In this document: piece after piece, positions 1 through 3,000 of the stretch
Layout of the letters: the number at the start of each line of letters is the position of its first letter
Numbering within the stretch: position 1 is the first letter of the stretch
Origin: a virus
Taxonomy: Duplodnaviria; Heunggongvirae; Uroviricota; Caudoviricetes
Virus record (IMG/VR): IMGVR_UViG_2703718869_000015
Reading direction: 5' to 3' (one strand)
Length of the DNA stretch: 13,521 bases
Program-made: the position numbers

Positions 1-3000
1 CACGCTGACGCAGTCACCGGTCAGTGCCTTTGCGGCGGATAAACTGCATGTGACAGACATTACCAGAGGTGCGACTTACCCGGTACTGATAGACAGCATT
101 GCGGTGGAAGTGAACAGCACAGACACTGCGGCATGATAAAAAAACCGCCAGCGACAGGAATGGACGCTGGCGGTGGTGATACCTATGGAGAAAAAATAAA
201 GGAACGATACTTTCGTACTCTGGTTTTTAATGAAAACAGTTCTTATTGTCAACAATAGCGGAAAGAAATTATGACATTTCTGAACCAGTTAATGCTGTAC
301 TTCTGTACGGTGGTCTGTGTGCTGTATCTCCTTTCGGGTGGGTACAGGGCCATGCGTGACTTCTGGCGCAGACAGATTGACAAAAGGGCCGCTGAGAAAA
401 TCAGCGCCAGTCAGTCAGCCGGAAGCAAACCCGAAGAGCCGCTCATTTAGCGGCAACTTTCTTAATCACACCTTTCGACGAGAAAATCCCATGTCAGAAA
501 TTACATCCCTGGTCACTGCAGAGGCAGTGAAGGACGTCCTGCGCTCTGAAGAAGTCCGGAGCGCACTGAAACAGAAACTTCGCCATAACCTGGAAGCGCG
601 TCTTGATGCAGAAGTGGATGCCATTCTGGATGAACTGCTTGGTGTACAGGCAGAGCCACCGACTGAAGCGGGAGATACCACCGCAGAGAGCGGTGAAGTT
701 CAGCCTGAATCACCGGTCGCCGATGCGACTGAACCTCAACCCGAATCGGTCATGATGCTGTAACGGGGAGTCAGGGCCATCAGTAAACAGCTGCTGGCCT
801 TTTTCATGTTGTGAGCTTCCGGATTGCGGGAGACGGGGTATGTACCAGATGGAAAAAATCACAACAGGTGTGTCATACACCACGTCAGCGGTGGGAACGG
901 GCTACTGGTTCCTGCAGTTGCTGGACAGGGTTTCCCCGTCTCAGTGGGCGGCAATAGGCGTGCTGGGGAGTCTGCTGTTTGGTCTGCTGACGTACCTGAC
1001 GAACCTGTATTTCAAGATTAAAGAAGACCGGCGTAAGGCGGCGCGGGGAGAGTAAGCTGATGAGCAGGAAATTCCGCTATGGTTTATCAGCGGTAGTTCT
1101 GGCGCTGATTGCCGCAGGTGCTTCTGCGCCTGAAATCCTCGACCAGTTTCTGGATGAAAAGGAAGGTAACCACACCACGGCATACCGTGATGGTGCGGGG
1201 ATCTGGACCATCTGCCGTGGTGCCATTCTGGTGGATGGTAAGCCTGTTATTCCTGGCATGAAGCTGTCAAAGGAAAAATGCGACCGGGTTAATGCCATCG
1301 AACGTGACAAGGCGCTGGCATGGGTGGAGAAAAACATCAAAGTGCCGCTGACCGAACCCCAGAAAGCGGGGATCGCGTCATTCTGTCCGTATAACATTGG
1401 CCCCGGTAAGTGTTTCCCGTCGACGTTTTATAAACGAATTAATGCAGGTGATCGAAAAGGTGCCTGCGAAGCGATTCGCTGGTGGATTAAGGACGGTGGC
1501 AGAGACTGCCGTATCCGTTCAAATAATTGCTACGGTCAGGTCTCACGGCGTGACCAGGAGAGCGCGCTGGCGTGCTGGGACATCGACAGATAGCAGAATA
1601 TTTTCCTGAAAAATGACGTTGGCCAACGCGGGTGGATAACACGAAATCCTGAAAACTGGTAAAACCTAAGTGAATAAAAGTAAAAACCCCGTTTGTTGGC
1701 AGCAAGCGGGGTTTTGTGTTTTCTGACCTTGAGTAAGGCAAGGGAGAAATTATGGGTAGGGAGGTACTTTCCCTGTGAGGAAGTATAAAAGATTCTTTCT
1801 GAGGTTGTCCATTATGAAAGGCATTGAAGTGGAGACGCCAGCCAGTCTGGATTTAACAAGAGCGGCAGCTTTTGCCATTCGTATTGTGGCCATTGCTGTT
1901 CTGGTCTGGGCAATCCGTTGGTGGTGATATGAACCGTGTTCTGTGCGTGGTTATCATTGTCCTGCTGGTGGCCTGTGGTGCGCTTAGTCTGGGGCTGAAT
2001 CATTACCGTGATCACGCCATCATCTACAAAGAGCAGCGCGATAAAAAAGCCAGTGAGCTGGAGCTGGCGAACGCGACAATTACTGATATGCAGATACGCC
2101 AGCGTGATGTCGCTGCACTTGATGCCAGATACTCGAGGGAATTAGCCGATGCGAGAGCTGAAAATGAAACTCTGCGTGCTGATGTTGCCGCTGGTCGTAA
2201 GCGCCTGCGGATCAACGCCACCTGCTCCGGTACCGTGCGTGAAGCCACCGGCACCTCCGGCGTGGATAATGCAACCGGCCCCCGACTGGCAGACACCGCT
2301 GAACGGGATTATTTCATCCTCAGAGAACGGTTGATGACAATGCAGAAGCAGCTGGAAGGGGTACAGGACTATATCCGCACTCAGTGCCTGAACTAAGTTT
2401 TGCTGATGCGCCGTATCGTCGCTGTATTCCCTCATTAACAGAGACCGCAGCCCGACAGGGAGACTACTCTGCGCGAGTGTGCGGGGATAATCAAAAACGA
2501 TGCACACCGGGTTTTCTCATTTTTCACGAGATGGGAGCGATTTCCCGCGAAGCCGCCTGTCCGGTGCGGTGGTGGAAGAAACCGGATAAAACAACCGCAT
2601 TGTGCAAATATCGATCAAATATGGTGCTGCTGTGTGAAATCTGAAAAATCACAGCGGTCATTATGCATCAGTTTTTAACACAGGACGTCAGAACGTGACA
2701 TGGCAAAGCTGGACTGGAAAAAGCTGGAGCAGGCATTCCGACGCGAACATGCCGAAACGGGAATAACATTACTGGACTGGTGCCGGAAGAAAAAGATTAA
2801 TTACAACACCGCCAGAACCCGTATAAAAATGGGCAAAATCGATCATGAAATTGATCATAAAACCGATCATGAAATCGATCATGACATCTCAGATGAAGAA
2901 CCCTGCAATGACGCGGGTTCCGGCGATGAAAAATGCGCAAAAAACTCTGAAAAAAACTGCGCAAATTCGGCAGAAACGAAACGGATTCGTGGTTCCCGAC

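Follow-up and report, generated by a model that had tools for sequence, protein, structure and literature searches.

A candidate in-gene packaging array of hexamer repeats and phased A-tracts in the small terminase gene of a 933W-group phage

We analysed a stretch of 13,521 nucleotides of viral DNA (IMG/VR record IMGVR_UViG_2703718869_000015, Caudoviricetes; hereafter the window), concentrating on positions 2926-2985, a segment of phased A-tracts directly downstream of a GATC repeat within terS, the gene for the small terminase subunit. The window derives from a short-tailed Shiga toxin (Stx)-converting phage of the 933W group; over bases 2600-3600 its identity to Escherichia phage TL-2011c is 100%, and about 220 Stx phage records reach 95% or more. 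Comparison with related sequences makes it probable, if by a modest measure, that 2926-2985 is the distal, intrinsically bent part of a packaging site (pac) resembling that of phage P1, an array lying inside the terS gene of a distinct small-terminase family. The first-pass annotation had noted that bends of this kind are common at packaging sites, and the place is indeed plausible as one, because the comparison points to a repeat array maintained at the DNA level.

The lysis genes and bor lie 5' of terS, while terL and then a P22-like portal gene lie 3' of it, with terS and terL overlapping by 20 nt (window 3487-3506). TerS is a member of the phrog_370 family ('terminase small subunit'), which it matches over its full length (E 3.8e-125, residues 1-268 against profile positions 1-284), and 379 homologues were retrieved; its counterparts in TL-2011c and 933W are annotated as small terminase. 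Pfam and NCBIfam assigned no family to TerS, and a scan of 2500-3300 for sigma-70 promoters and terminators found none. The features on which the argument draws are the following:

2700-3506, plus strand: terS, small terminase, 268 amino acids (open reading frame list).
3487-5193, plus strand: terL, its ATG at 3487 lying inside the 3' end of terS.
2700-2831, plus strand: coding region of the N-terminal three-helix domain, helix-turn-helix (HTH)-like, residues 1-44 (AlphaFold; weak P1 PacA homology).
2832-3071, plus strand: stretch that encodes the linker (residues 45-124), hypervariable and predicted to be disordered, and holds all repeat elements (predicted local distance difference test, pLDDT; alignment).
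2825-2838, plus strand: degenerate family unit AAAAATGGGCAAAA (TGGGCA), at the position of the first TGCGCA of relatives (such as AAAACTGCGCAAAAAC of relative L037).
2836-2888, plus strand: 12-bp tandem array, 4.4 copies, consensus AAATCGATCATG (Tandem Repeats Finder, repeat search, GATC positions).
2882-2928, plus strand: poorly conserved spacer that codes for acidic residues and separates the proximal from the distal repeat group (conservation 0.27-0.59; predicted straight over 2881-2901).
2929-2942, plus strand: distal unit H1, AAAAATGCGCAAAA (TGCGCA at 2934-2939), with A5 and A6 at its sides (repeat search).
2946-2957, plus strand: 12-bp unit TCTGAAAAAAAC, which contains A7 and is absent from relatives L037 and L039.
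2950-2984, plus strand: distal unit H2 and conserved island, GAAAAAAACTGCGCAAATTCGGCAGAAACGAAACG (TGCGCA at 2958-2963), the peak of DNA conservation in the enteric clade.
2984/2985, no strand: mosaic junction, with alternative downstream alleles IRGSRLLPPSNAF and NSRSGNPHPVARF among close relatives.

At the protein level, an AlphaFold model (37-sequence alignment) gives an N-terminal three-helix domain at residues 6-41 (helices 6-20, 24-31 and 35-41; pLDDT 73-85), a stretch with pLDDT below 50 across residues 45-124 that reaches about 30 at the Cys/His segment, and a long helical hairpin at residues 129-238. The recognition helix is presumed to be NYNTARTRIK. In the family alignment, the N-terminus and the C-terminal part are conserved, and the low-complexity middle is hypervariable with indels. 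A PDB sequence search and a Foldseek search with the model returned generic coiled coils only (E > 0.05). The peptide given in the first-pass annotation for the segment (...DISDEEPCNDAGSGDEKCAKNSEKNCANSAETKR, preceded by IDHEIDHKTDHEIDHD) is as stated, and the suggestion that it forms a flexible linker is borne out: given the low pLDDT and the hypervariable alignment, it is best regarded as a disordered tether.

The A-runs themselves stand exactly where they had been placed, with A5 at 2929-2933, A6 at 2939-2944 and A7 at 2950-2956, followed by A3 runs at 2963-2965, 2974-2976 and 2979-2981, and the proposed helical phasing of about 10-11 bp holds, the run centres lying 10.5, 11.5, 11 and 11 bp apart. 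A5, A6 and A7 thus form the three or more phased A-tracts, about 10-11 bp apart, that are characteristic of curved DNA. Nowhere else in the window do three runs of five or more A follow one another at a spacing of 9.5-12 bp, and 500 first-order Markov simulations yielded no such triple, so that the phasing exceeds chance based on composition. The prediction that such phasing confers intrinsic bending is backed by two kinds of calculation. According to a Bolshoy-Trifonov wedge model (our own implementation, with parameters that we supplied ourselves), curvature reaches its window maximum of 67 degrees per 31 bp at 2941 and has its third peak at 2827, the stretch 2881-2901 between these two bends being straight. 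The periodicity of AA dinucleotides, which is model-free and parameter-free, agrees with the wedge model: its amplitude at periods of 10-12 is the highest in the window for windows starting at 2912-2930, and the runner-up comprises windows starting at 2797-2833, over or just before the GATC repeat, which rank third at period 10. On a scale of 200 bp, no part of the window is more curved than 2794-2994 (ratio of end-to-end to contour length 0.683, against a median of 0.946), and the bends near 2827 and 2941 therefore add up. DNA of this kind would be expected to bend in vitro. The second-highest curvature in the window, 64 degrees at 4289, lies inside terL (4270-4300) at GGGAAAAAATGACGTATTTTTCTG, where an A6 and a T5 run are 9 bp apart.

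Two groups of repeats make up the array. The proximal group consists of four YGATCA hexamers, each holding a Dam GATC site, at 2840-2845, 2852-2857, 2864-2869 and 2876-2881, that is, with a 12-bp period; three are CGATCA and one is TGATCA, and they are translated as IDHE IDHK TDHE IDHD. Four GATC sites thus fall within 40 bp, compared with 40 in the whole 13.5 kb. The number of GATC units differs among near-identical phages, being 3 in L035, 4 in the window, 5 in L075 and 7 in P0001, whose protein has 280 amino acids. The distal group is formed by H1 and H2, and the A-runs of the first-pass annotation therefore turn out to be A-rich sequence flanking two canonical units of the family. Since TCTGAAAAAAAC is absent in L037 and L039, the segment can be described as a degenerate 12-bp tandem with copy-number variation: L039 has a single unit, L037 has two side by side, and in L038, as in the window, two units stand 24 bp apart. 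The sequence AAAANTGSGCAAA occurs only three times in the window, always within terS and on the same strand.

When homologous genes are read codon by codon, the recurrent element of the linker is a DNA hexamer and not a peptide. The family unit has the form AAAA-N-TGCGCA-AA, extended AAA[C/G]TGCGCAA, in which the hexamer, of general form TGNNCA, recurs in A-rich spacers about once per helical turn; spacings cluster at 9, 10, 12 and 14 bp, and those up to 15 bp average about 10.5. At 24 of 30 genome loci of TerS relatives, nucleotides 100-330 of terS contain 4-8 copies of GCGCA where 0.2-0.8 would be expected, and at five Pectobacterium/Brenneria loci its place is taken by six copies of TCGCA (five as TTCGCA) in several frames. 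GCGCA itself is found in all three frames, as GCG-CAA (AQ), GTG-CGC-AAA (VRK) and TGC-GCA (CA), and the 12-mer AAAACTGCGCAA, translated as K-T-A-Q in some relatives, gives (E)-N-C-A in this phage.

These observations bear on the simplest alternative, namely that the segment is constrained only as protein: a low-complexity, K/E/N/C-rich disordered tether driven by slippage, in which A-runs and hexamers are incidental to a preference for AAA and GAA codons and to 12-bp copying. The predicted disorder, the hypervariability with indels and the copy-number variation of 12-bp units in both repeat groups all fit such an account, and so does the finding that synonymous recoding of the peptide alone gives an above-average mean curvature of 46.7 degrees, which stays fairly high because the peptide is rich in K, E and N. 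Only 1% of recodings attain the observed 67 degrees, a result that is suggestive but does not settle the matter, since units that arose by duplication have inherited the same codons. Nevertheless, slippage within the frame cannot produce a hexamer that occupies three frames at spacings of 9, 10 and 14 bp; spacings that are not multiples of 3 within an intact reading frame exclude it and argue for selection on the DNA motif. What was found is the reverse of a constraint on the protein only, under which the protein would be conserved over poorly conserved DNA: the protein is poorly conserved, and the DNA motif is kept across frames. Together with the covariation and the over-conserved synonymous sites of 2958-2984 described below, this renders the protein-only account unlikely.

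A further argument for the hexamers comes from their relation to the HTH. Across 72 distinct terS 5' regions, for which a protein-level proxy was also made, the type of hexamer and the type of helix partition perfectly: helices of the form ARR[YH] (n = 49) go with 4-8 copies of GCGCA, ART[RQ] (n = 17) with 3-5 copies of GATCA, and AKRY (n = 6) with 6 copies of TCGCA. In an independent Salmonella lineage, with 61% protein identity and the helix ARTQIK, we find AAAAGTGATCAAAAAAGTGATCAAAAAAACGATCAC, which is the AAAA-N-hexamer-AAA unit with a GATC centre. No other comparative evidence, in our view, speaks as strongly for the hexamers as the binding sites of the HTH, although such binding is deduced from comparison of the genes.

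Within the distal group, the island 2950-2984 stands out. Among 12 non-redundant genes of the enteric clade, its mean pairwise DNA identity is 0.68-0.88, compared with 0.27-0.56 upstream and 0.41-0.44 downstream, and codon identity at residues conserved in all of them is 0.78, compared with 0.52 in the C-terminal domain (P about 0.001). In pairwise comparisons, the codons at such residues are shared in 66/66 (TGC), 66/66 (AAA) and 55/66 (ACG) pairs, and synonymous sites of 2958-2984 are over-conserved. H2 and the island are invariant in all complete ARTR-class variants seen; L036, which is interrupted by an insertion sequence (IS), is without the island. As to the junction at its 3' end, a GATC (AGCAGATCGGG or AGCCGATCGGG) comes with the allele NSRSGNPHPVARF, about 15 bp past the junction.

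One could also speculate that the TGCGCA units are a relic of an ancestral TGCGCA array, left behind when the proximal part and the helix were swapped to a GATCA module, and that the island is kept as a mosaic linker for allele exchange and not for the terminase. The mosaic junction at 2984/2985 with its two downstream alleles is what such an account would lead one to expect, as is the degeneracy of H1 in 933W and L072, and the ART-class helix correlates with GATCA and not with GCGCA. Yet the island is kept in two independent GATCA-type lineages as well as in all TGCGCA-type enteric relatives, and its synonymous sites are near-invariant despite 54-77% protein identity. Moreover, the arrangement of proximal and distal groups about 57-67 bp apart is also found in L037 and is reminiscent of P1. 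We therefore regard the relic account as rather improbable.

The first-pass annotation had also raised the possibility that the Cys/His segment binds metal. Four His and three Cys (the DH repeats, C69, C79 and C87) do fall within about 40 residues, and Cys87 is conserved in the enteric clade, which might suggest a structured metal-binding element of TerS. Such binding is not supported, because the His come from GAT-CAT and Cys79 and Cys87 from TGC-GCA, and the conservation of Cys87 coincides with an invariant TGC codon within the DNA hexamer. The linker lacks the conserved, regularly spaced ligands and the folded element of a Cys/His metal motif: there is no family-wide CxxC or HxxH pattern, no confident structure is predicted (pLDDT about 30), the 55 relatives of the ARR and AKR classes have AQK or SQ/IR repeats instead of the His, Serratia, Aeromonas and Pectobacterium relatives are without the Cys, Cys69 is replaced by Ser in close variants, and Cys79 aligns with H, L, S or R. 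Metal binding thus appears highly improbable, and the odd peptide is most likely a by-product of translating DNA repeats (GAT-CAT as Asp-His, TGC-GCA as Cys-Ala), serving only as a flexible tether. Equally remote is the idea that the A_AAA_AAC heptamers at 2938-2944 and 2950-2956, which in the frame of terS both have the slippery form X_XXY_YYZ, direct a programmed -1 frameshift or transcriptional slippage to give a truncated, HTH-only product, an idea we rejected since the -1 frame stops immediately after the first site and yields an unremarkable 40-residue tail after the second, the RNA fold of 2900-3000 has no significant structure (z = -0.16), an Rfam scan of 2400-3600 gave no match, and the heptamers are absent from L039, L040, L002 and L003.

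Returning to the interpretation as a packaging site, the closest parallel is P1. The N-terminus of TerS is, by sequence, weakly homologous to P1 PacA: it matches the PacA family phrog_1711 (E 3e-5), PacA reciprocally matches phrog_370 (E 1.9e-4), and the pair align by blastp (3e-6) and hhalign (75% probability, E 2.6e-5) over W..F.R...G.T......N.NTARRY. This likeness is confined to the N-terminal 42-100 residues; the remainder of the protein differs, PacA having 397 amino acids and a different C-terminus. In P1, four TGATCA/G hexamers start about 20 codons past the HTH and are followed by an integration host factor (IHF) site, the cuts and three more hexamers (PMC10028697). The P1 hexamers lie at about codons 65-118 of pacA, and the window array occupies codons 47-88, with the HTH (residues 1-44) encoded before it. 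Both sites thus have GATC hexamers within the gene of the recognition subunit, right after an N-terminal HTH and at spacings of about 7-15 bp (PMC10028697); the four YGATCA of this phage are repeated Dam-site hexamers as in P1, and P1, too, has a bent region between its hexamer groups. The two differ in that the cut of P1 is flanked by a pair of GATC clusters (4 + 3) with an IHF site between them, whereas this phage has one cluster, a distal TGCGCA pair and intrinsic A-tract phasing instead. If, by analogy, the P1 distances applied (cuts 47-56 bp after the last left GATC), cleavage would fall at about 2924-2933, near the 3' end of the spacer. Phage phi24B encodes an N6-adenine methyltransferase (PMC3342100). 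An enzyme of this type is also annotated in 933W, and it is therefore plausible, again by analogy with P1, that methylation of GATC gates the site.

Other packaging sites share single aspects of this layout. The pac of SPP1 (pacL/pacR) has repeated short boxes at the terminase gene, bound by the oligomeric small terminase G1P, on intrinsically bent A-tract DNA that is wrapped; short boxes and, by prediction for the window, bent A-tract DNA at the terminase gene are thus common to both phages, but the SPP1 boxes flank the cut on both sides, and protein family and box sequences are unrelated to those found here. In lambda cosB, the HTH of gpNu1 binds several short R-sites, and an IHF bend at I1 is needed for assembly. 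It resembles the present array in combining several short repeats with a sharp bend between them, and differs in that the bend is protein-induced, the site lies outside the coding region, and the ends are cos ends and not headful ones. P22 and Sf6 are short-tailed phages whose pac lies inside the small-terminase gene, as proposed for the window with its P22-like portal; P22, however, has one asymmetric pac site of about 22 bp in place of a hexamer array, and the TerS families are unrelated.

Taken as a packaging site, the array would have a proximal group of four YGATCA and a distal group of two TGCGCA units flanked by A5, A6 and A7. The HTH domains of an oligomeric small terminase would bind the hexamers, and the phased A-tracts would pre-bend about 200 bp (2794-2994), which would let the DNA wrap around the oligomer even though no IHF site can be recognised. 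Next, the large terminase would cut nearby, with headful packaging to follow, and methylation of GATC may gate the site in the fashion of P1.

Several points weigh against this interpretation, besides the use of wedge parameters that we supplied ourselves. First, strong curvature is not family-wide: the segment is the most curved of its locus in the E. coli/Salmonella clade and at four other loci; across the TerS family, the median p for curvature against local 230-nt windows is 0.22, and the family-wide feature is the hexamers, not the bend. Second, there is a single GATC cluster, the next GATC downstream being at 3786, and H1 is variable and not required in its TGCGCA form, with TGTGCA in 933W (synonymous), TGCGCC in L072 and loss of A6 in L064 and L038. 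Third, if the ARTR helix pairs with GATCA, the TGCGCA units may be non-cognate relics, and the excess codon identity of the island could stem from recent recombination at the mosaic joint and not from selection. Fourth, the comparison with P1 is incomplete: no match to the IHF consensus WATCAANNNNTTR with at most one mismatch was found between 1533 and 3684, and TerL shows no similarity to P1 PacB by blastp (best E 3.6). Finally, our literature search found no experimental pac mapping for 933W-type phages, and PhageTerm assigned 'Mu-like' ends with host DNA at the ends to the 933W-like phage Lys19259Vzw (PMC7946995), a result that bears on the mode of initiation by the terminase. The latter may reflect packaging begun before excision, or contaminating DNA. 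Record PV189400, which we considered as evidence on the ends, is re-linearised at terL and thus uninformative.

A broader and more tentative proposal is that the TerS family acts as a swappable cassette, in which the helix and the in-gene hexamer array change together among at least three specificities (TGCGCA, TTCGCA and YGATCA), and that the Stx lineage gained a Dam-gated, P1-like GATC array and kept the bent element 2950-2984 as a nucleation or cleavage site replacing the IHF bend of P1. We consider this possible rather than likely. If true, it would define the still-unmapped pac site of the medically important 933W-type phages, by which Shiga toxin genes are spread. Knowing such a site would help to explain and predict what DNA of the host or from neighbouring regions is packaged and transduced, would throw light on a possible dependence of packaging on Dam methylation, and would inform the evolution of pac specificity, for which the covariation of helix and hexamer over the 72 terS variants offers a testable recognition code. 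More generally, a translated regulatory DNA array can pass for an odd Cys/His low-complexity peptide.

A few minor features of the locus may be added. About 90 bp 5' of terS, TGTGCAAAT-ATCGATCAAAT at 2601-2620 places both hexamer types next to each other; we considered it as an extra arm of pac and rejected it, since even L038, a relative of the same helix class, does not conserve it, and because it is unconserved in L037, L038 and L039 it is probably a chance occurrence. A 15-nt inverted repeat at 2807-2821 and 2914-2928 (CACCGCCAGAACCCG / CGGGTTCCGGCGATG, 13/15 complementary) encloses the GATC array together with the degenerate unit before it and the spacer after it; one arises in about 1.5% of mononucleotide shuffles, and L037 and L039 lack it. 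Similarity to the window ends right after a three-copy GATC repeat (...CGATCATGACATCT) in at least six Stx2a prophage records (L036, which is LC727841.1 and aligns to window 2700-2890, and H65-H70). There the sequence goes on as TGAACCGCCCCGGGTTTCCTGGAGAGTG..., which we take to be an IS629/IS3-type end, and terS is interrupted.

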